A stretch of 64,000 nt of DNA from an uncultured Bacillota bacterium (lineage in GTDB: Bacteria > Bacillota > Dehalobacteriia > UBA7702). Position 1 is the stretch's first letter, and every line of letters begins with the position of its first letter. This document shows positions 6,670 to 18,228 of this stretch, in pieces. The position numbers were made by a program, and so were the translations under genes. The DNA lies in the NCBI GenBank assembly GCA_934702375.1, contig CAKUYE010000001.1, positions 11,275 through 75,274 of the forward strand. Direction: 5' to 3'. Below the pieces are notes generated by a model. That model ran no database searches. It worked only from the letters and a program-made list of their open reading frames with translations, and was not told the DNA's origin.

Positions 6670-9030
6670 TTATACGACCTTTGCCACAGTTACCGTGATA
6701 TCGTCCTTTACCTTGCCCCCTCCTGCCAATACGGCATGGTTGGCAATGCGTTCTCCAATCGCCTTAGGCGTATCACCGCAACAATCCGCCAATAGAGGGA
6801 TCAACCATTCATCCGGCCCATTTCCGACGGAAACCGCTTCTTCCAAGCCATCGCTGGCCAAAATAAGAATATCACCGGGATTCAAGGGCTCCTTGGAACG
6901 TTTGGCCGGAGCAGAAAAGAAAGTGTTTCCGTCAAAGGCAACACCGCCGATCACTTTTACCCCCTTTCCCGGTGTACACAGGTAGGATGCACCGGCGCCA
7001 AGCTTCACGAACTCCGCTTTTTTTCGAATGCGATCAATCAAACAAAGATCAAGGGTAGCATAAAGTTCCGCCTCTCTTTCCAATAATAATCGGTGTCGAG
7101 CCAAAGCCGCAACAAAATCCTGCTCAAAACCACAATCCAGTATCTTACGAATAAACTCCACTGTATTTTGAGATTCTTTTTTCGCTTTCGCACCGGAACC
7201 CATACCATCGCTGATGATCAAAGCTTCTTTTGCGTCAGGCAACAACAACGCTGCATCGGTATCACCACAAACGGTGCTGCCCTCTTTCGTCAATTGTACG
7301 GAGCTGACTTCCATGGAAATCGCATCGCCGGAGATCAAACGGCAGACACAGGCTTCGCCCCGGCTGCCGCAACAACAATCCGAAACGGTATAATGCAAAC
7401 CGGAAAGATGATTGATTGCTCCGGCGATCTGGCGTCCGCAGGGGCGTTTTCCATCACAATGACGGGTTTTGAGCCGCAACCGGATCTCATTCATATCAAT
7501 GTTATCGAAAAGAATTTTATCAACGCGAAAACCGTTTTTTCGTAATTCACCGCCGAGCTTGGTATAAAGGGTTTCCTTCATCGTTTTCAACCCTTCCATA
7601 TTTTCCGCCAATTCCGTTAAGATTCGGGCGGTATGCTCCATTTGACTTACAGCCAAAGTGCGGCTGGCATCAACTTGCCGCTGCCAATACTCATTTTTCC
7701 GAAAAAGCTCATAAAGACAATTTACGGCAGTCACCATTTCTTTGCTATGACAGCATTTACGCCGAAAGGTTTCGGGAAGATCCTTTGTGGTGATACCGTC
7801 GTTGGCATCGGCTAAGGCAAAAACCCGCATCAGATCTTTATAGGTCACATCAAAATCACTTTTCCAACATAACCCCTTTAACGTACAACCATTACAAATT
7901 TTTGCAGAGATATGCTCTAAAATTCCATTGGCATTTTTTCCGCTTTGAATAGACGATTCCTGATACACACCGTTCATCGCCGTTTTCAGAGCGGAAAGAC
8001 TTTGCCCGGTCTCTTTCAGACGATTCAAAGCATATTCCTCGCTTTTGGAAGAGGTATCGGCCTTTGCCGCCGGAGTTTTCAATCCAAACACTTCAGAGAT
8101 ACGAAAAAGAATGCCATTGGGTATTGCCAGGAAAAGTACTGCCCCGATCAAAGTTTCCAGAGCAGATGATGATAAAAGAGTTGTGTCAAGGAGATATAGA
8201 GATAACAATATCTTTCCCAGCAAATACCCAACAATAATCCCCGGTCGGCGAAAACGGCGGAATAGCCCTGCCGATAAACCGGAGAAAGCATACATTCCGA
8301 TGGCTGCCGGACTGACCAACGCAGAAAGCGATGGCAGAATACCAAGGACCGCCCCGGCGGCGGCACCGCTTCCGGCACCGCCGATAAAGGCAGCAGAAAG
8401 GATCAGGAAACACATCACAACATTTGCAGGAGATACGGAATAGACTGCAAAGCTATCCATGCCCAGTAACAAACCACCGGCAAAAATAAATATGCATAGG
8501 ATATCTCCCCGTCCCGGTTTTTCCATACTGCCTAAAAGATGCCATACCTCAGAAGCTCGATGCAGTACAAGAGAAAATCCGGCAGCTAAGATGCTCTCAG
8601 TCAAGGTGATAACGAGGAGCATATCCGATATGCCTTGAAAAACAAGAAACAGGCCGCGTATGACCAAAACTGCCGTAAAGACAGTGATCACCAAATACGA
8701 TTGACTTTTACTCCCTAAAACAGGATAAAACAAAAAACAAAAGAAGGATGCCACCAAAATCACGGCATAAACGGCAAATTGAGACGGTACAAAATAATAA
8801 TACCCGGCGGCGGCAAAAATCAGCCAGAGAAAACTCCGGCGCCGATCTGCAGCGGAAGCCGAAGCAAACCAGGCAATGCCAAAGGGATAAACAGCACCGA
8901 GAAAACCCGCACCGGCCATAAAAAAGCCGCAGATCCCCAAGAGAAGAGTCGGTAAAGAAAACCAGCATCGTACCATAGATTTTACCGGATGTTCTTTTTT
9001 CATTTTAGGCAAAGCCATTCTTTTTGGCAT
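6670..9030 (-). CDS. spoIIE: stage II sporulation protein E (PP2C phosphatase with polytopic membrane domain)
   Basis: About 10 hydrophobic segments in the N-terminal half; C-terminal PP2C-type domain with DGMGSG and ASDG motifs; about 790-846 aa depending on start (ATG at 9030 chosen; TTG at 9210 possible). Confidence 0.85.
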   Translation of the reverse strand: MPKRMALPKMKKEHPVKSMVRCWFSLPTLLLGICGFFMAGAGFLGAVYPFGIAWFASASAADRRRSFLWLIFAAAGYYYFVPSQFAVYAVILVASFFCFLFYPVLGSKSQSYLVITVFTAVLVIRGLFLVFQGISDMLLVITLTESILAAGFSLVLHRASEVWHLLGSMEKPGRGDILCIFIFAGGLLLGMDSFAVYSVSPANVVMCFLILSAAFIGGAGSGAAAGAVLGILPSLSALVSPAAIGMYAFSGLSAGLFRRFRRPGIIVGYLLGKILLSLYLLDTTLLSSSALETLIGAVLFLAIPNGILFRISEVFGLKTPAAKADTSSKSEEYALNRLKETGQSLSALKTAMNGVYQESSIQSGKNANGILEHISAKICNGCTLKGLCWKSDFDVTYKDLMRVFALADANDGITTKDLPETFRRKCCHSKEMVTAVNCLYELFRKNEYWQRQVDASRTLAVSQMEHTARILTELAENMEGLKTMKETLYTKLGGELRKNGFRVDKILFDNIDMNEIRLRLKTRHCDGKRPCGRQIAGAINHLSGLHYTVSDCCCGSRGEACVCRLISGDAISMEVSSVQLTKEGSTVCGDTDAALLLPDAKEALIISDGMGSGAKAKKESQNTVEFIRKILDCGFEQDFVAALARHRLLLEREAELYATLDLCLIDRIRKKAEFVKLGAGASYLCTPGKGVKVIGGVAFDGNTFFSAPAKRSKEPLNPGDILILASDGLEEAVSVGNGPDEWLIPLLADCCGDTPKAIGERIANHAVLAGGGKVKDDITVTVAKVV

Positions 9031-9316
9031 TGCTTTTTCTTCAAAGGGATAAAACTTTACCGACTCACTCACTGGATCACATCCTTTCCTGGGGCTTTTC
9101 TTTTGTTTTCTATCGCATCTCGCGATTCTGATACAATTATAGCTCTTTGCCGCTGTAAACATTGTCACAATACCGAAGCCAAACAAAGAATTTTCCGACG
9201 GTATCTGCAAGTATCCGGCAAAATACCCATAGCATTTTCGTCACATTTCCATTGACAAACCCATCTTCCCTGTTCAGGGCAGAGTCAAGGAACGACATTA
9301 TTTCAAAATGCGAAAA

Positions 9317-10615: not shown

Positions 10616-10691
10616 GGCGGTGTAGCTCAGTGGTTAGAGCACTCGGTTCATACCCGGGGTGTCAAGGGTTCAAATCCATTCACCGCTACCA
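10616..10691 (+). tRNA. tRNA-Met (anticodon CAT), CCA encoded
   Basis: Cloverleaf by eye: acceptor GGCGGTG/CACCGCT, D-arm GCTC-AGTGGTTA-GAGC, anticodon loop TTCATAC, T-loop TTCAAAT, 3' ACCA; one G-A mismatch in T-stem; Met versus initiator versus lysidine-Ile not resolved. Confidence 0.8.
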
Positions 10692-10694
10692 CAT

Positions 10695-10771
10695 GGCGCG
10701 TTGGAGAAGCGGCTGAACTCACCAGCCTTTCACGCTGGCATTCATGGGTTCGAATCCCATACGCGTCACCA
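10695..10771 (+). tRNA. tRNA-Glu (anticodon TTC), CCA encoded
   Basis: Acceptor GGCGCGT/ACGCGTC, anticodon stem CCAGC/GCTGG with loop CTTTCAC, T-loop GGTTCGAATCC, 3' ACCA. Confidence 0.85.
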
Positions 10772-11043: not shown

Positions 11044-11685
11044 TTATCTCTTTTGACGGGAAAGCATTTTTTTTGCCACATCATCCCAATTCATACCCTG
11101 TTCATAGAGGAGAACGGTCATATGATAGATAAGGTCAGCGGCTTCCCATTGAAGTTCATCGTAGGCGTGGTTTTTAGCGGCAATGACACATTCCGTGGCT
11201 TCCTCACCCACCTTTTTACAAATTTTATCGACACCCTCGGTAAGGAGATAGTTAGTATAAGAACCTTCCACCGGATTCTTTGCCCGTTCGGCCACAACGC
11301 TGTATTCCTGAGCCATGGCCGGTCCGATAGTGAGAGAATCTTCCGCCGGCTGCAAAGCACCATCTTTCCACTGCCGATAGAAGCAAGTTTTATTTCCGGT
11401 ATGGCAAGCCGCACCGGTCTGTTCAATCTCCAACAGAATCGTATCTCCATCGCAATCCAACTTCAAGGATATCAATTTTTGTTTATTGCCGCTGGTCTCC
11501 CCTTTTTGCCACAGGCATTGGCGAGAACGGCTAAAGTAGGTGCAGTATCCTGTTTCCAGGGTTTTCGTCAAAGATTCTGCATTCATATAGGCCATCATTA
11601 CCACCTGACCACTGCAAACATCATAGGCAATGGCGGGAACCAGGCCTTTTTCATCCCATTTAATTTCATTTATCAATGCATTCAT
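11044..11685 (-). CDS. hisI: bifunctional phosphoribosyl-AMP cyclohydrolase / phosphoribosyl-ATP pyrophosphatase
   Basis: 213 aa; N-terminal HisI cyclohydrolase region and C-terminal HisE MazG-like region. Confidence 0.85.
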   Translation of the reverse strand: MNALINEIKWDEKGLVPAIAYDVCSGQVVMMAYMNAESLTKTLETGYCTYFSRSRQCLWQKGETSGNKQKLISLKLDCDGDTILLEIEQTGAACHTGNKTCFYRQWKDGALQPAEDSLTIGPAMAQEYSVVAERAKNPVEGSYTNYLLTEGVDKICKKVGEEATECVIAAKNHAYDELQWEAADLIYHMTVLLYEQGMNWDDVAKKMLSRQKR

Positions 11686-12406
11686 CGGTTTCTCCTATCA
11701 CATTTTCCAGCTTTACGGCTCCGGTATAAAGGGCCTTGCCAATGATGGCTCCGGCCACACCGGTTTCCTTTAAAGCGGGAATATCACTTTCCTTTGCCAC
11801 ACCGCCAGAAGCAATTACCGCAGCATCTACCGCCTCGGCCATCGTTGCCATGGCGCTAAGATTGGGGCCGGAAAGCATACCATCCCGGGAAATATCCGTA
11901 TAGATGATTGTTGCCACACCCAGGTCCGCAACGGCCTTGGCAAATTCCACCGCTTCCAAAGTGCTGCTTTCGGTCCAGCCCTCAATGGCAACCATACCAT
12001 CCTTGGCATCGATCCCCACGGCAAGACTTTTACCGTATTTCTTTGCAGCTTCGGCCAAAAGCTTTCGATCCCGCACCGCCGAAGTGCCAAGAATCACTCG
12101 GTCAAGACCGGCTTCTAAATAAGTCTCAATATCGGCCATAGTACGAATACCACCGCCAACTTCGGTAAAAAGGCCGGTTTCCGCTTTTACGGCTTTGATA
12201 ATCTTATCGTTGACAGGACAACCGGCTTTGGCACCGTCCAAATCTACCAAATGAATGGAATCAGCGCCGAGCTGCAAAAATTCCCGGGCTTTGGCCACCG
12301 GATCGGCGGCAAACACAGTCTTTTGAGCATAATCCCCTCGAACCAGGCGCACACACTGGCCATCGATCATATCAATGGCAGGCAAAATCTGAAAAGTTCT
12401 CATCAC
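11666..12406 (-). CDS. hisA: 1-(5-phosphoribosyl)-5-[(5-phosphoribosylamino)methylideneamino]imidazole-4-carboxamide isomerase
   Basis: ILPAIDMIDGQCVRL, HLVDLDGA and VGGGIR motifs typical of HisA, not HisF; overlaps hisIE by 20 nt. Confidence 0.8.
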   Translation of the reverse strand: MMRTFQILPAIDMIDGQCVRLVRGDYAQKTVFAADPVAKAREFLQLGADSIHLVDLDGAKAGCPVNDKIIKAVKAETGLFTEVGGGIRTMADIETYLEAGLDRVILGTSAVRDRKLLAEAAKKYGKSLAVGIDAKDGMVAIEGWTESSTLEAVEFAKAVADLGVATIIYTDISRDGMLSGPNLSAMATMAEAVDAAVIASGGVAKESDIPALKETGVAGAIIGKALYTGAVKLENVIGETDECIDK

Positions 12407-12981
12407 AGCACCCCCTTGGTAGAAAGAATCTCCGTCCCTTCTACGGCAACGGCGGCTTTCAGCCCATGACCAAAGGCTTTAAACAACCCCTCGGCCATAT
12501 GATGATTGTTTTTTCCATAGCGTAAATTAAGATGTAGCGTCATCCCGGCCTGATCCGCCAAAGCCCGGAAAAATTCCTCCGTCATTTCCGTGGGATATTC
12601 CCCGATCCGCTCTACGGTAAAATCAGCATGAAAGACAAGATAACTGCGACCGGAAAGATCGATTACCGCTTCGGCCAGAGTCTCATCCATGGGAATCAAA
12701 GCACTGCCATAGCGGTGAATCCCGGCTTTATCACCGAGAGCCTCTTTCAATGCACAACCCAAAACAATACCGGTATCTTCAATGGAATGGTGAGCATCCA
12801 CATAGAGATCTCCCCGACATTGCAAAGAAAGATCAAAACCGCCGTGACGGGCAAAAAGGGTCAGCATATGATCAAAAAAACCAATGCCGGTATTCACTTC
12901 CGCCTTGCCGCTGCCGTCCAGATTCAAGGTCAGAGCGATATCCGTTTCCTTTGTTTTACGGTTTACCGATGCTGTTCTCAA
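12403..12981 (-). CDS. hisB: imidazoleglycerol-phosphate dehydratase
   Basis: 192 aa; RKTKETDI start and DxHH metal motifs of IGPD. Confidence 0.88.
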   Translation of the reverse strand: MRTASVNRKTKETDIALTLNLDGSGKAEVNTGIGFFDHMLTLFARHGGFDLSLQCRGDLYVDAHHSIEDTGIVLGCALKEALGDKAGIHRYGSALIPMDETLAEAVIDLSGRSYLVFHADFTVERIGEYPTEMTEEFFRALADQAGMTLHLNLRYGKNNHHMAEGLFKAFGHGLKAAVAVEGTEILSTKGVL

Positions 12982-14051
12982 TCAAACCGCCCCTTTCCGT
13001 CCACGTATTCCTCTACCACATCAAGGAAAATACGCATTTCTTCTTTGGTGCCGATGGTCACCCGAAGGTAATCTTCGATCCGGGGTTGATCAAAATGGCG
13101 CACCAGAATATTTTTACTGCGCAAATGGTCAAAAAGATCTTTGGCCTTGCAATTCCAGTAATGAATCATAATAAAATTTGCCGAAGAAGGTAAGACATCA
13201 AAGCCAATCATCCGCAAAGCAACACTGACCCCTTCCCGGGTAGCACGAACGGTATTGATATTTGCCTCCACGGTACGTTTGTTTTGAAGAGAAGCAATAG
13301 CCCCGGCTTGAGCAATACGGTCTACCGGATAAGAATTAAAGGAATCCTTCACCCGATACATGCCTTCGATCAATTCGGGACTGCCGATAGCAAATCCCAC
13401 CCGCAGACCGGCCAAAGAGTGAGATTTCGACATGGTTTGTACCACAAGGATATTGGGATATTTCCGTACCAACGGAATGGCCGTTTCCCCACCAAAGCGC
13501 ACATAGGCTTCATCGACAATAATCACATGATCCGGATTATTCTTTACGATAAACTCAATTTCCCGACGGGTGAGTGCAATGCCGGTAGGCGCATTGGGAT
13601 TGGCAAGAACAATGCCGCCGTTTTTCCGACGGTAATCCCGAAGATTGATGGAAAAATCATCCTTTAACGGCACTGTTTCGTAAGTCAGCCCCAAATGATT
13701 GCAGTATACCGGATAGAAGCTGTAAGTAACATCCGGAAAATAAACAGGCTCTTCCGGCGAAAAAAAGGCATCAAAGGCAAAGGAAAGGACCTCATCGGAA
13801 CCATTCCCAACAAAAACATTTTCCGGGGATACCTTATTATACTTGGCAAAAAGACTTCTTAATTCCAAGGCCTCAGGATCGGGATATTTGCGCAGGTCGC
13901 CATTGGCGGCCTTACGCATAGCCCGAAGGACTTTATCGCTGGGGGGAAAGGGATTTTCATTGGTATTTAATTTTACCATTTCTGTTTTGGGCTGTTCCCC
14001 GGGGGTATAGGGCTTTAAATTACGGGTACGTTCATTCCAAAATCGACTCAT
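12978..14051 (-). CDS. hisC: histidinol-phosphate aminotransferase
   Basis: LKPYTPGEQP...NENPFPP N-terminal pattern and PLP-lysine region (SKSHSLAGLRVG); start placed at internal ATG (MSRFW...); the track ORF start at 14126 overlaps hisD. Confidence 0.85.
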   Translation of the reverse strand: MSRFWNERTRNLKPYTPGEQPKTEMVKLNTNENPFPPSDKVLRAMRKAANGDLRKYPDPEALELRSLFAKYNKVSPENVFVGNGSDEVLSFAFDAFFSPEEPVYFPDVTYSFYPVYCNHLGLTYETVPLKDDFSINLRDYRRKNGGIVLANPNAPTGIALTRREIEFIVKNNPDHVIIVDEAYVRFGGETAIPLVRKYPNILVVQTMSKSHSLAGLRVGFAIGSPELIEGMYRVKDSFNSYPVDRIAQAGAIASLQNKRTVEANINTVRATREGVSVALRMIGFDVLPSSANFIMIHYWNCKAKDLFDHLRSKNILVRHFDQPRIEDYLRVTIGTKEEMRIFLDVVEEYVDGKGRFD

Positions 14052-14070
14052 GGTATTGGGATCCTCCTGA

Positions 14071-15363
14071 TTATTTACGGATTGCTGCGCTTCTGGCATG
14101 GCCGGTAAGGCCTTCGGAATTGGCAAAGCGAATCACATCATCCTGGACTTTCATAAAAGCTTCTTTGTTGTAACAAAGCACTGTGGTTTTTTTCATAAAG
14201 TCAATGGTATTCAAAGGAGAAGAGAATCGTCCGGTACCAATGGTAGGCAAAATGTGGTTGGGACCGGCCATGTAATCCCCAAGAGCTTCGGGGGTGTAGT
14301 GACCAAGGAACAATGCTCCGGCCGTTTTGGGTTTGTGAATGTAATCCAGAGGATTATCCACGGCGATTTCAAGGTGCTCCGGAGCAATGATATTGGCAAC
14401 GTCAAAACACTGGTCAAGATCATCACAAAGGATCACCGCACCGTAATCATCCCAGGATGCTTTGGCAATGTCATAGCGTTCCATGGGCTTCAAAGCTTTT
14501 TCCACTTCAGCTTCGGTAGCTTCGGCCAAAGCAGCATCGGTAGTTACAAAATAAGATGCAGCAAGGCGGTCATGCTCGGCCTGAGAAAGAAGATCCGCCG
14601 CAAGCCATACCGGATCGGAGGAACTATCGGAAACAACGCAAATTTCACTGGGGCCGGCAACCATATCAATACCGCACTCACCGAATACCAGCTGTTTTGC
14701 AGTGGCAACAAAAGCATTGCCGGGGCCGGTGATTTTATCTACCGCAGGAATGGTTTCGGTACCGTAAGCCAACGCAGCAATGGATTGAGCGCCGCCAACC
14801 TTATAAATTTCGGTAACACCGGCAATCTTGGCAGCCACCAAGGTAACGCCGGGAATGGTGCCATCGGCAGCAGGGGGTGTGACCATCACAATTTGTTTTA
14901 CTCCGGCAACCTGAGCCGGAACAGCGTTCATCAAAACCGAGGAGGGCAACGGTGTTTTACCGCCGGCACCACCGGGAACATAGATCCCCACATTGCGCAA
15001 GGGCTGAATCAACATCCCCAGAGTTGTGCCGTCATCTTTCTGTTCAAACCAACTGTTTTCCAGTTGTTTTTTGTGGAAATAGGCAATATTTTCCGCAGCT
15101 TTCTCAATCGAGCCTAAAAGCTCCTTGTCAATCTTGGAAAAAGCATCCTCGATTTCTTCTTCGCTGACCTTAAGGTTTTCCACGGTGCAGCCATCAAATT
15201 TGGCATTGTAAAAGCGCAAGGCATCATCACCTTCGGCACGAACTTTGGCAATGATATCCTTTACGATATCCTCTACATCAGCGCTGTTGTTATCCTTGCG
15301 GACATTGAGATAAGCCTGCAACTCACTGTAATCGGTGCTGTTTCTAAAATCAAATTTTTTCAT
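14071..15363 (-). CDS. hisD: histidinol dehydrogenase
   Basis: 430 aa, HisD family Zn/NAD-binding motifs (QAEHD, GPxHxLPT). Confidence 0.9.
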   Translation of the reverse strand: MKKFDFRNSTDYSELQAYLNVRKDNNSADVEDIVKDIIAKVRAEGDDALRFYNAKFDGCTVENLKVSEEEIEDAFSKIDKELLGSIEKAAENIAYFHKKQLENSWFEQKDDGTTLGMLIQPLRNVGIYVPGGAGGKTPLPSSVLMNAVPAQVAGVKQIVMVTPPAADGTIPGVTLVAAKIAGVTEIYKVGGAQSIAALAYGTETIPAVDKITGPGNAFVATAKQLVFGECGIDMVAGPSEICVVSDSSSDPVWLAADLLSQAEHDRLAASYFVTTDAALAEATEAEVEKALKPMERYDIAKASWDDYGAVILCDDLDQCFDVANIIAPEHLEIAVDNPLDYIHKPKTAGALFLGHYTPEALGDYMAGPNHILPTIGTGRFSSPLNTIDFMKKTTVLCYNKEAFMKVQDDVIRFANSEGLTGHARSAAIRK

Positions 15364-15378
15364 TTTATATCGACTCCT

Positions 15379-16017
15379 TTATTCCAATTCTTTTTTAAAA
15401 TCGCGGATCAATTTCACAATCATTTCATTTTTCGTTTTCATACTGACTTTGTTCACCACCATCCGGGCGGAAATATCCCGGATCACATCCTCATAGATCA
15501 CAAGGCCGTTAGCATCCAAAGTTGCACCGCTCTGAACAATATCAACGATAACATCGGCAAGGCCGGTGATGGGAGCCAATTCCACGGATCCGTTGATCTT
15601 GATGATTTCCACACGCTCCGAGCGCTCCTCACGAAAATATTTCTCAGCAATATGGGGATACTTTGTAGCTACTTTCTTTCGCTGGTTTTTCTCCCAAAGC
15701 TCCTGTTTTCCCACAGGTCCGGCCACACACATACGGCAACGACCAAAACCAAGATCAAGGACCTCAAAGAGATCTCGTTCTTCTTCCAACAAAGTATCCT
15801 TACCTACAATGCCGATATCGGCGGCACCGTATTCTACAAAAGTAGGGATATCCGAAGGCTTTCCCAGGAAAAAGCGGACGCCGCCGCTTTCATCGGTAAG
15901 AATCAGCTTGCGCTTGGGATCATCAAATTCCGGACAGACAATACCGCTTTTACGGAAAAATTCCATGGAGAGATCGGCCAGGCGGCCCTTGGCCAAAGCA
16001 ACATTCAATGTTTTCAT
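15379..16017 (-). CDS. hisG: ATP phosphoribosyltransferase, short form
   Basis: 212 aa, the short HisG form that requires HisZ; overlaps the hisZ stop. Confidence 0.85.
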   Translation of the reverse strand: MKTLNVALAKGRLADLSMEFFRKSGIVCPEFDDPKRKLILTDESGGVRFFLGKPSDIPTFVEYGAADIGIVGKDTLLEEERDLFEVLDLGFGRCRMCVAGPVGKQELWEKNQRKKVATKYPHIAEKYFREERSERVEIIKINGSVELAPITGLADVIVDIVQSGATLDANGLVIYEDVIRDISARMVVNKVSMKTKNEMIVKLIRDFKKELE

Positions 16018-17012
16018 GACGACATTCCCTCCTCTCCGTTACCGGCTAAGATGTCCAATAAAAAGTTGATATTTACCGAAAAGCCCGTAGCCGGCGTGGC
16101 CGGGCCGAATTTTTCTACCAGGTGGTCATAACGCCCCCCAGAGAGTATCGGCGTGCCAAAGCCGGAAACAAAGCCCTGAAAGATAATGCCGGTATAATAA
16201 GATAACGCGCTAACCATGCCGAGATCAATGGCCAGATAGCGGCCGTAGCCTGCTTTTTGCAACCGTTCTACCACATCGGAAAGATTATCAATGGCTTCCC
16301 GAGCCTTGCCCCCAAAACGATAGTCCTTTAATCGGGTCAGGATTTCAATACCACCGTAAAGTGCCGGCAACTCCGTTAATGCAGATTTCAAATCTCCGCC
16401 AATGCCCAAAGCTGCCACCTTCTTTTCCAGTCCAAGAAAATCCTTTTTATCCACAAGATGGCGTAAAGCATCTTTTTCGGCAAAGGGCAGCGATGTTTCG
16501 TTCATCAATCCCTTAAAATATTTCACCTGCCCCAGCTCTACGGTAAATTCATTTAGCCCGGCAGCAATAAGAGCTTCAATGGCGGTAGCTATCATCTCGG
16601 CATCTGCCGCCGAAGAGCCGTCGCCAATGCTTTCGCAGCCGGCCTGGGTGATTTCCTTTAAATCCAGGTACCGATCTTTTTTGCTGCGAAATACATTCTG
16701 ACAATAGCACAATTTTAAAGGCAGTCGCTCCTTAAGCTTCGTTGCAGCCAACCGGGCACAGGGCACGGTAAGATCGGGGCGAAGAACAAGAATACGTCCC
16801 TGCTCATCGACAAACTTAATCATATCCTCTTCGGGGATGATATCCCGCTGGCCGCTGAAGGAATCAAAAAATTCCAATGTCGGCGTAACGATCTCGGAGA
16901 AACCACCGTGTCGAAAGACCTCGATCATAGCATTTTCAATTTTTCGCTTGCGATAGCTTTCGTCTGCAAGAAGATCCTGCTCGCCATCGGGGACATAAAG
17001 CTTCCAGGTCAT
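16014..17012 (-). CDS. hisZ: ATP phosphoribosyltransferase regulatory subunit (HisS paralog)
   Basis: Class II aaRS-like catalytic core without anticodon-binding domain; start taken at internal ATG (MTWKLYV...) with GAAAGGA RBS, because the longer track ORF would overlap the attenuator terminator. Confidence 0.8.
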   Translation of the reverse strand: MTWKLYVPDGEQDLLADESYRKRKIENAMIEVFRHGGFSEIVTPTLEFFDSFSGQRDIIPEEDMIKFVDEQGRILVLRPDLTVPCARLAATKLKERLPLKLCYCQNVFRSKKDRYLDLKEITQAGCESIGDGSSAADAEMIATAIEALIAAGLNEFTVELGQVKYFKGLMNETSLPFAEKDALRHLVDKKDFLGLEKKVAALGIGGDLKSALTELPALYGGIEILTRLKDYRFGGKAREAIDNLSDVVERLQKAGYGRYLAIDLGMVSALSYYTGIIFQGFVSGFGTPILSGGRYDHLVEKFGPATPATGFSVNINFLLDILAGNGEEGMSS

Positions 17013-17051
17013 AGAACGATCATCCTTTCTGAGATATTCCGGGGAACCCGG

Positions 17052-17086
17052 GAAATAAAAACGCAGCCACAATTGCGTGACTGCGG
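17052..17086 (-). terminator. intrinsic terminator of the his attenuator (between leader peptide and hisZ)
   Basis: On minus strand: CCGCAGTCAC-GCAATT-GTGGCTGCG hairpin (9 bp including one G-U) followed by TTTTTATTT; lies 40 nt upstream of the hisZ ATG. Confidence 0.7.
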
Positions 17087-17135
17087 AACTTACTATAAAG
17101 AAATATACCCTACCTACGGGTAATTTTGAATGACA

Positions 17136-17240
17136 TTACCCGCAAATAAAGGAAGGTGCTTTCGGAGAACACGCACACGCCACAAAAATATTTTTTTCTG
17201 CACAATGGTGATGGTGGTGGTGGTGAAGATGCATGCGCAT
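17136..17240 (-). CDS. hisL: his operon leader peptide with 7 consecutive His codons (MRMHLHHHHHHHCAEKNIFVACACSPKAPSFICG)
   Basis: Minus-strand mini-ORF ATG CGC ATG CAT CTT CAC CAC CAC CAC CAT CAC CAT ... TAA, preceded by GAAAGGAGC RBS; absent from the ORF track because it is only 34 codons. Confidence 0.7.
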   Translation of the reverse strand: MRMHLHHHHHHHCAEKNIFVACACSPKAPSFICG

Positions 17241-17292
17241 TTTAAAAGCTCCTTTCTTATGGATAGATCACGATTTCTTGATGTTGTTTGAT

Positions 17293-17321
17293 ATTATACT
17301 ATGATAATCCGGGAAAATCAA
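17293..17321 (-). promoter_or_regulatory. sigma-A type promoter of the his leader transcript (TTGATT-17-TATAAT)
   Basis: Minus strand: -35 TTGATT (17316-17321), 17-nt spacer, -10 TATAAT (17293-17298), about 50 nt upstream of the leader ATG. Confidence 0.6.
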
Positions 17322-17433
17322 GTATAATTTTACATTTTTTCTCAAAAAAATTAGTAAAAATTAGGACAAGACTTTTCACCCATTTTTCATTTTCGCATAG
17401 AATGAAAGAAGAATCAAAGAAAGGAACTTTACT

Positions 17434-18228
17434 ATGACCTGGTTTTTATCACTCCCCACGTTGCTCCAGGGGCTGCTGGCCGGTTTACTGGCGTTGCTCC
17501 CTGCGGCAGGCGGCGCAGCGATGGTATTTCCCCTTCGTGATCTCAACCAGAAATATCTGGACGGTTGCCTTGGCCTGGCCGGCGGAATTATGGTAGCGGC
17601 ATCCTTTTATTCATTGCTGAACCCTGCCTACGATCAGGCGGTAGCGCTGCATTTCACTCCGATCTGGCCCATCGTTTCCGGTTTTATTTGCGGTGTGCTT
17701 TTTCTGCTTTTTGCCGACAAGGTGCTGCCCACCGACGGCAGAGAAACCAAGGCAGGAAAATTCCTTCAACGCTCCTTTGGCAGCAACACACTTCTCTACC
17801 TCGCCATGACGGTACATAATATCCCCGAAGGCCTCGCTATCGGGGTTGCCGTTGGGGCTGCAGCCGATGGCAGCACCATGGCGGCAGCTCTGGCACTGGC
17901 TCTGGGCATCGGCATTCAAAACTTCCCGGAAGGCGCTGCGATTTCCCTTCCTCTGCGCCGAGACGGTCTTTCTCCGGCAAAAGCCTTTGGCTTTAGCCAG
18001 CTTTCGGCCACAGCAGAAACCATCTCCGCCATGATCGGCGCAGCTCTTACCATCTTTGCCGAACCGATCCTTCCCTTTATCCTGGCCTTTGCCGCCGGAG
18101 CAATGATTTTTGTGGTTTTTGCCGAGATCATTCCCGAGGCTCATATCAACGGCAACAAAAAAGCGGTGTCGGTGTTGGCGGCGGTGGGGTTTGTTGTAAT
18201 GATGTTCTTCGACCTCTTCTTCAGCTGA
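17434..18228 (+). CDS. ZIP family divalent metal (zinc) transporter
   Basis: 264 aa; 8 TM pattern; HNIPEGLAIG signature of ZupT/GufA-type ZIP proteins. Confidence 0.75.
   Translation: MTWFLSLPTLLQGLLAGLLALLPAAGGAAMVFPLRDLNQKYLDGCLGLAGGIMVAASFYSLLNPAYDQAVALHFTPIWPIVSGFICGVLFLLFADKVLPTDGRETKAGKFLQRSFGSNTLLYLAMTVHNIPEGLAIGVAVGAAADGSTMAAALALALGIGIQNFPEGAAISLPLRRDGLSPAKAFGFSQLSATAETISAMIGAALTIFAEPILPFILAFAAGAMIFVVFAEIIPEAHINGNKKAVSVLAAVGFVVMMFFDLFFS

Follow-up and report, generated by a model that had tools for sequence, protein, structure and literature searches.

A predicted histidine-responsive, ribosome-mediated transcription attenuator in front of the hisZ-led histidine operon of an uncultured spore-forming Clostridia lineage

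A histidine-responsive, ribosome-mediated transcription attenuator very probably controls hisZGDCBA(IE), the histidine biosynthesis operon of an uncultured Bacillota bacterium, whose contig CAKUYE010000001.1 was analysed over a stretch of 64 kb, referred to here as the window. The element is read on the minus strand at 17040-17325 (all coordinates are those of the window), and in it a short open reading frame rich in histidine codons, the mini-ORF, is followed by a terminator hairpin ahead of hisZ. A first-pass annotation, made from the nucleotide letters, had pointed to this leader. All the elements it listed are present where it placed them, and the observation itself is confirmed. That the mini-ORF is translated, that ribosomes stall on it and that readthrough responds to histidine is what we infer from conservation and modelled folding.

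The leader is preceded by a sigma-A-type promoter (17293-17321), with the -35 box TTGATT at 17321-17316, a 17-nt spacer and the -10 box TATAAT at 17298-17293. This promoter, claimed in the first-pass annotation, matches the consensus at 10 of 12 positions, and TTGnnn-17-(TAG)TATAAT recurs at the same relative position in the related loci L006, L009, L010 and L007. Transcription would start about 45 nt 5' of the mini-ORF, and the terminated leader RNA would be about 235 nt long. The ribosome-binding site (RBS) GAAAGGAGC at 17248-17256, 8 nt 5' of the leader ATG, is followed by 34 codons plus TAA at 17136-17240, encoding MRMHLHHHHHHHCAEKNIFVACACSPKAPSFICG. Eight of the first 12 codons are histidine codons (17205-17231). 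Codon 4 (CAU, 17231-17229) stands alone, and codons 6-12 (four CAC, then CAU, CAC and CAU; 17225-17205) form the seven consecutive ones that had been described earlier together with the RBS.

Between the mini-ORF and hisZ lies the intrinsic terminator (17053-17085). Its 5' arm, region 3 (R3), is CGCAGUCAC at 17085-17077, the loop is GCAAUU, the 3' arm, region 4 (R4), is GUGGCUGCG at 17070-17062, and the U-tract UUUUUAUUU occupies 17061-17053. The GC-rich hairpin of 9 bp with its U-tract, which the first-pass annotation had also claimed, has a predicted stability of -14.4 kcal/mol (17085-17062), and the end of the U-tract is 41 nt from the hisZ ATG at 17012. No separate promoter was detected between the terminator and hisZ. 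The operon itself spans 11044-17012 on the minus strand, in the order hisZ (17012-16014), hisG, hisD, hisC, hisB, hisA and hisIE (11685-11044). All seven genes match NCBIfam equivalogs above the curated cut-offs, hisZ being assigned by TIGR00443.

Both the histidine-codon run and the folding of the leader depart from what shuffled sequences give. Seven CAY codons in a row are found at a single place in the window, and 100 dinucleotide shuffles contain no such run, not even when one mismatch is tolerated. The 251-nt leader folds more stably than 200 of 200 shuffled versions (z = -3.8). The shuffle counts together with the fold z-score therefore exclude a chance origin.

The leaders of relatives were gathered by a scan of reference genomes, a HisZ protein search and contig look-ups by exact protein. 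A metagenome scan with the HisZ alignment yielded two loci only, both from relatives at 60-61% HisZ identity and both without a leader. The resulting set holds 13 distinct leaders, with HisZ identities of 71-92%, and 14 leaders were analysed when the strain variant L002 with nine histidine codons is included. The leader-bearing relatives are uncultured Clostridia metagenome-assembled genomes (MAGs) from gut, rumen and anaerobic reactors, some of them labelled Peptococcaceae or Clostridiales. All 13 distinct leaders contain a mini-ORF of 24-34 codons, with 5-10 in-frame histidine codons among the first ~14, so that the histidine cluster noticed in the window is present in every orthologous leader. 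The starts of the relatives' peptides include MRIHLHYHHHSANEH, MKMHLHHHHHHHHHMTSV, MRMYTHHRHHHNHLCQ, MKAHHHHFHHHFKNGK, MRLHDHHHRYHWIGNK, MNIHHHRSHFHMVLF and MLMHTYHRHHHKMDAQ. In the alignment of the 13 leaders, the columns of the RBS GGA and of the ATG do not vary, unlike the bases next to them. Beyond the N-terminal histidine cluster, neither the sequence of the peptides nor their length or cysteine content is conserved. A conserved RBS, start codon and histidine cluster joined to a divergent remainder is the signature of a regulatory leader peptide. The mini-ORF was not found in the relatives at 60-61% HisZ identity (L011, L022, L023), nor in Lachnospiraceae at 36-41%, and the element therefore marks one fairly narrow clade.

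The same comparison bears on the idea that the mini-ORF encodes a functional micropeptide rich in histidine and cysteine, for example a metal-binding one tied to the divergent ZIP transporter gene, with the terminator simply ending a small gene. The peptide is indeed rich in both residues, and beside the his promoter lies a ZIP-family gene, both in the window and in most of the relatives. However, outside the histidine cluster there is no conservation of sequence, length or cysteines, and the downstream part keeps its RNA complementarity to the terminator arm, not its amino acids. Furthermore, L022 has the ZIP-his synteny and no mini-ORF, and hisZ begins only 41 nt past the terminator, with no promoter of its own detected. 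A conserved metal-binding peptide was rejected, as neither the cysteine residues nor the C-terminal half are conserved, and we regard a functional micropeptide in general as very improbable.

Variation within the species is confined to a few positions. The HisZ protein is unchanged on many same-species metagenome contigs, and the leaders there (L001-L005, compared with window 17205-17225) are identical except for a histidine run of either 7 or 9 codons and one Ser/Phe change. The Ser-to-Phe change in the leader peptide is carried by L003 and L004. The difference between 7 and 9 histidine codons stays in frame, yet a triplet repeat would give that anyway. A varying repeat number is also what slippage-prone triplets would produce if the CAC/CAU run were a neutral trinucleotide repeat in a chance open frame, and the hairpin a constitutive terminator or insulator with no histidine sensing. 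Against this stand the relatives, in which the histidine runs are interrupted (HHRHHHNH, HHHHFHHH, HDHHHRYH) and are still in frame behind a conserved RBS and ATG. Besides, a terminator that acts constitutively would be harmful where it separates an essential biosynthetic operon from the sole promoter detected, and a copy of the terminator arm is conserved in position upstream of the hairpin. A mere insulator with a neutral repeat thus has hardly any probability.

A terminator hairpin with a U-tract is found between the mini-ORF and hisZ in 14 of 14 analysed leaders. RNAalifold, run on a MAFFT alignment of the whole leaders, recovered the terminator as the sole helix, and seven of its nine pairs show compensatory changes, which answers for the terminator stem the question of compensatory changes raised in the first-pass annotation. 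In a formal count 95% of the alignment cells are paired, none of 500 shuffles reaches either the percent paired or the covariation score, and the pairing collapses once the register is slid. Indels, together with a register shift of one column in the L007 group, prevent a column-wise alignment of the pairings of region 1 (R1) with region 2 (R2), and of R2 with R3.

A second G+C-rich hairpin (CCGGG-UUC-CCCGG, 17039-17051, minus strand) is located between the U-tract and the RBS of hisZ. Hairpins at the equivalent place occur in L009 (GGCGGCGC-UUCC-GGCGCCGCC) and in L007 (GACGC-CAA-GCGUC; L007/L008), so that the position is common and the sequence is not. Such a hairpin might protect the 5' end of the readthrough or processed mRNA, or modulate the translation of hisZ.

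The likeness of a leader segment to the 3' arm of the terminator, on which the first-pass annotation had based its region scheme, is borne out. R2, UGUGGCGUGUGCGU at 17171-17184 (minus strand), lies within the mini-ORF at +56..+70, is similar to the 3' arm and is able to form a duplex with the 5' arm. It would form the 5' strand of the antiterminator and could pair with either R1 or R3. In the window the R2:R3 duplex has 9 bp with a 3-nt bulge (-10.9 kcal/mol). In each leader, the stretch that starts at the RBS and ends 12 nt short of the terminator was scanned for the segment forming the best duplex with R3. In 12 of the 14 leaders the best partner falls at mini-ORF +43..+70, just 3' of the histidine cluster, and a segment equivalent to R2 is present at +43..+76 in all 13 distinct ones. 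R2 is G/U-rich, a near-copy of the terminator 3' arm, and it varies along with that arm: GUGGCUGA goes with CAGUCAC, AUGUGGUCGG with GCGGCCACAU or ACGGCUGCAU, and UGGCUGCA or GGUUGCA with GCAGCC. At alignment column 209 three leaders have A changed to G in R3, and the same three have U changed to C in R2 as well as in R4; column 215 alternates between G-C and A-U.

Exchanging R2 and R3 between leaders gives a matrix with sub-clade blocks, in which pairing with a foreign arm is often much worse. For example, R2 of L010 pairs with its own R3 at -11.8 kcal/mol and with foreign arms at -3 to -4. The duplex was also examined in a mini-alignment of natural R2, an artificial A8 linker and natural R3-R4, anchored on the predicted duplex. 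In register, 75% of the cells are paired, compared with 30-35% after sliding by 1-2 columns and 44-60% at +/-3, and four pairs are changed on both sides. Tested leader by leader against shuffled upstream sequence, the R2:R3 z-values are mostly weak (about +0.1 to -3.2), and the support for this pairing comes from positional consistency and not from the strength of any single duplex.

Concerning the region scheme, regions 2 and 4 of the first-pass annotation stand, but it had not identified region 1, which in the window is mainly a start-codon segment. This segment, R1a (AAUGCGCAUGCA, 17230-17241, minus strand), includes the leader start codon and would act as the 5' strand of the anti-antiterminator. 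Its pairing with R2 comprises 10 bp at -16.3 kcal/mol, and the same pairing is predicted in the closest relative, L024, at -16.6. A second, weaker partner of R2 is R1b (CACCAUCACCAUUGUGC, 17200-17216 with approximate limits, minus strand), which corresponds to the distal histidine codons. Upstream of R2, its best partner falls within mini-ORF -3..+38 in 13 of the 14 leaders, on the start codon and/or the histidine codons, and it overlaps the histidine codons in L007, L009, L010, L026, L027, L028, L031, L033, L034 and L035. A ribosome stalled on the histidine cluster would in every case have R1 under its footprint, and R2:R1 and R2:R3 share R2 and are alternative pairings. Between R2 and R3 there are central stem-loops (17106-17141, minus strand) that would be enclosed by the antiterminator helix. 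There, GGGUAAU (17141-17135, containing the leader stop codon) pairs with AUUACCC (17124-17118), or alternatively UACCC pairs with GGGUA (17122-17106). The relatives have a stable but non-homologous hairpin in this place.

The switch was modelled on transcripts truncated after the terminator loop, before R4 emerges, by computing the expected number of R2:R3 pairs; ribosomes were represented by a mask from A-site -15 to +12, an approximate footprint, and the values are thermodynamic predictions. For 12 of the 14 leaders, about 0 R2:R3 pairs are predicted in the free truncated RNA. When a ribosome is stalled on a histidine codon, the number rises to 2-11 pairs, with the fold shifted in most leaders, as the first-pass annotation had led one to expect. 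With the ribosome at the stop codon, about 0 pairs are again predicted in 11 of 14. A codon-by-codon scan of the window indicates that R1a:R2 (about 9 bp) forms in RNA without a ribosome and also with the ribosome at any codon from 9 up to the stop. When one ribosome is placed on codons 8-13 and a second at the AUG, 6.4-8.6 R2:R3 pairs are predicted, against 0 in the free RNA. According to the model, antitermination in the window needs R1a and the histidine run both covered, that is, a stalled and a trailing ribosome.

Two further pairings were seen in the modelled folds. The RBS-proximal GGAGCUUUU (17245-17254) can pair with GAAAGCACCUUC (17152-17164, minus strand), just 3' of R2. R1:R2 would thereby be lengthened to a long hairpin in which the leader RBS and AUG are buried. 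Corresponding pairings, at -8 to -16.5 kcal/mol, exist in 13 of 13 leaders, and L010 has an apparent compensatory change (GAGUUU/GAACUU versus GAGCUU/AAGCUU). Such a hairpin could limit translation of the leader to its first round. The other pairing links CGUGAU in the 5' untranslated region (17267-17272) to GUCACG of the terminator 5' arm (17076-17081), with 5-8 expected pairs in many of the truncated-fold states. It is not obviously conserved in the relatives, and may be an artefact of the modelling or else compete for R3 as well.

Taken as an attenuator, the leader would work as follows. When charged tRNA-His is plentiful, the ribosome would pass the histidine codons and R2 and reach the stop codon. 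Behind it, R2 would re-pair with R1 (17241-17230 or the histidine codons) and leave R3 free, so that R3:R4 and the U-tract would stop RNA polymerase at 17053-17061, ahead of hisZ. When charged tRNA-His is scarce, ribosomes would stall or queue on codons 4-12 and cover R1. R2 would then stay single-stranded and capture R3 once it is transcribed, and with R4 left partnerless the polymerase would enter hisZ.

Several results count against this mechanism. When the full terminator is included, equilibrium folding with ribosome masks keeps the terminator at a probability above 0.9 in nearly every state; since a hairpin that is local and perfect always prevails there, such folding says little about the switch. 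As in the classical model, the choice between the two structures must therefore be made kinetically. In the truncated-transcript model, L006 and L031 do not behave as expected with the ribosome at the stop codon. In the window, just 0-2.8 R2:R3 pairs result from a single stalled ribosome; on codons 4-8 it frees R2 only partly, because the distal histidine codons are a second partner of R2. The leader stop codon lies 32 nt past R2, where a terminating ribosome does not cover it, and termination would therefore rely on R1:R2 re-forming rather than on the ribosome covering R2. The R2:R3 duplex of the window is bulged and weaker (-10.9 kcal/mol) than both R1a:R2 (-16.3) and the terminator (-14.4). 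Finally, R2:R3 covariation, although suggestive, is not above the column-shuffle control, with 164 of 500 shuffles reaching the percent paired and 72 of 500 the covariation score. R2 is G/U-rich and pairs promiscuously, and an alignment anchored on the duplex favours the zero register. For the alternative antiterminator proposed in the first-pass annotation there is thus a candidate partner, at a matching position of the mini-ORF in 12 of the 14 leaders. Its conserved position and complementarity suggest an antiterminator, and proof by covariation falls short.

The lack of a switch with a single ribosome in the equilibrium model of the window would suit a leader sensed by a trans-acting factor, either uncharged tRNA-His through a divergent T-box-like element or an RNA-binding protein, with the histidine run serving as an untranslated binding or pairing element. 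T-box control of his genes is, moreover, common in Firmicutes (PMC9413887). Yet no T-box match was obtained in the window at E<=10 or in 14 related loci at the gathering threshold, and the ~235-nt leader has no conserved specifier or T-box-like core, RNAalifold yielding the terminator only. An untranslated element would also not need the RBS, ATG and in-frame histidine clusters that are kept in 13 of 13 leaders. We consider a trans-acting sensor improbable, and ribosome-mediated attenuation remains by far the preferred explanation.

Searches for other known regulators point in the same direction. The leader has no Rfam match at the gathering threshold, applied to the whole window, or at E<=10 for 16900-17500, where only chance snoRNA- and osmY-like matches appeared, and the 14 related loci have none at the gathering threshold, T-box included. 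Both the T-box (RF00230) and the Rfam His_leader (RF00514, searched at 16900-17500) were rejected for lack of a covariance-model match at the gathering threshold or at E<=10. The HisR operator has a published consensus, cacTTTA-N6-TAAAgtg, a 20-bp palindrome. In window positions 17000-17450 there is neither a TTTA-N6-TAAA core nor a match to the clade version with two mismatches allowed. Judging from these searches, no competing regulator (T-box, other Rfam family or HisR operator) is visible at the his promoter of the window.

The situation differs in some sister lineages. In seven leader-bearing relatives, a palindrome of the HisR type, (A/G)CTTTA-N6-TAAATT, occupies a fixed position close to the promoter, which would fit control of histidine synthesis mainly by a HisR repressor at the promoter, with the leader playing a minor role. 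The window lacks such a site, and so do L024, L026, L007, L031 and L033, and it is hence most improbable that HisR is the main regulator here. The palindromes are located at L006:2684-2697, L009:2736-2749, L010:2766-2779, L027:298-311, L028:1206-1219, L034:1207-1220 and L035:881-894. In five of the seven relatives the palindrome begins exactly 66 nt 5' of the -10 box, and in L009 and L010 it directly follows the -10 box and lies over the transcription start. These sites suggest that part of the clade combines a repressor with the attenuator. A more far-reaching proposal is that the attenuator of this clade is a ribosome-queuing sensor, with a long run of 7-9 histidine codons and a second ribosome, and with two-layer control by repressor and attenuator in the sister lineages. 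We put it forward tentatively, as a rather unlikely possibility.

A different motif was noticed at the Lachnospiraceae hisZ loci, which have a short leader. There, TTTAAYATGGTAGCAYRCTAAAGT is found just 3' of a TTGACA/TATAAT promoter (L012:2963-2977, L013:2955-2969, L014:2954-2968, L015:2954-2968, L016:2956-2970). It is probably a lineage-specific HisR operator, because the R. gnavus HisR site was validated in vitro and the right half of the motif matches TAAAgt.

The surroundings of the operon offer some additional observations. The order hisZ-G-D-C-B-A-IE lacks hisH and hisF, and a tblastn search with HisA found no HisF paralogue in the window. Both genes must be elsewhere in the genome, and are possibly controlled separately. 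The ZIP-family metal transporter gene (17434-18228, plus strand) is divergent from the his operon and adjoins its promoter region. The ZIP-his synteny extends across the clade (L022, L024, L028, L031, L033, L034), mostly in divergent arrangement and co-oriented in L028 and L034. At the other end, tRNA-Met(CAT) and tRNA-Glu(TTC) at 10616-10771 (plus strand) are convergent to the end of the operon, and none of the tRNAs adjoining it is a tRNA-His. The window further contains a cobalamin riboswitch (RF00174, 46658-46825, minus strand), which with 59.6 bits exceeds the gathering score. The minus-strand gene at 6670-9210 encodes SpoIIE, and the organism is therefore a spore-forming Firmicute.

Leader and mini-ORF both escape gene callers and Rfam, and without them the control of histidine synthesis in these Clostridia of guts and digesters would enter annotations as unknown. 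The 13 diverse leaders provide material for a covariance model, as no Rfam family currently detects any Firmicute his leader. Since a ribosome has to keep pace with RNA polymerase for the mechanism to work, they would also lend themselves as natural reporters in tests of transcription-translation coupling in Clostridia. If the queuing and two-layer proposal were true, it would in addition be evidence for functional coupling in a clostridial lineage. The understanding of attenuation as such is left unchanged.

Among known systems, the enterobacterial hisL leader (RF00514) shares the logic of the window element, with a chain of alternative hairpins ending in a terminator. The hisL leader of E. 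coli has seven consecutive histidine codons, the same number as the window. The differences are that the window leader has no RF00514 match at E<=10 and belongs to a different phylum, that its peptide is longer and extends 32 nt past R2, and that the first regulated gene is hisZ, which is absent from enterobacteria. Because of the missing RF00514 match, we do not regard the window attenuator as homologous to the proteobacterial hisL. It also departs from the paradigm of the E. coli trp leader, where the terminating ribosome covers region 2, whereas here the stop codon lies 32 nt beyond it. The His T-box and HisR of other Firmicutes serve the same physiological role, feedback on histidine synthesis, by other mechanisms, and neither was found in the leader or promoter of the window.

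Within the Firmicutes, ribosome-mediated attenuators have been established experimentally for the leucine-rich leader of S. aureus ilv-leu (PMC5794164) and for B. subtilis bmrCD (PMC4191407). As described there, translation of a leader ORF controls an intrinsic terminator, as is proposed here; the signals are leucine codons and antibiotic-induced stalling, respectively, and the sequences are unrelated.

The closest known counterparts are the candidate histidine leaders that Ashniev et al. 2022 (PMC9413887) found before hisZ-led operons in a search of 626 Firmicute genomes. These occur in six species of the B. cereus group, in four Peptostreptococcaceae (including C. difficile) together with Lutispora, and in six Erysipelotrichales. 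The view of the first-pass annotation that such a design is unexpected in a Firmicute was thus overstated, since histidine-leader attenuators had already been predicted in three Firmicute lineages (PMC9413887). The published attenuators and the window element are alike in phylum, in a hisZ-first operon, and in having a promoter, RBS, tandem-histidine ORF, attenuator hairpin, candidate alternative antiterminator and intrinsic terminator. Both escape RF00514, which detects none of the Firmicute histidine leaders (PMC9413887), and the window promoter is likewise without a T-box or HisR site. They differ in lineage, the window clade consisting of uncultured spore-forming Clostridia MAGs, and in the length of the histidine run, with 7-9 consecutive codons in the window species against 3-5 in the published leaders. 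A further difference is that in the window the start codon of the leader is part of region 1. Here, several of the sister leaders also bear a HisR-like operator, whereas the published attenuators are reported only from lineages without HisR regulation, and the combination of repressor and attenuator for his operons is not reported (PMC9413887). An nhmmer profile of the 13 leaders scored below 5 bits against the published Lutispora, Terrisporobacter and Acetoanaerobium leaders (Additional file 6), and matched only the CAY run. The novelty is limited to the new lineage, as the clade is not among the published ones, to the longer histidine run and to some details of architecture. As a fourth, sequence-unrelated Firmicute lineage with probable control by a histidine-rich leader, this clade strengthens the view that such attenuators have originated repeatedly outside the Proteobacteria.

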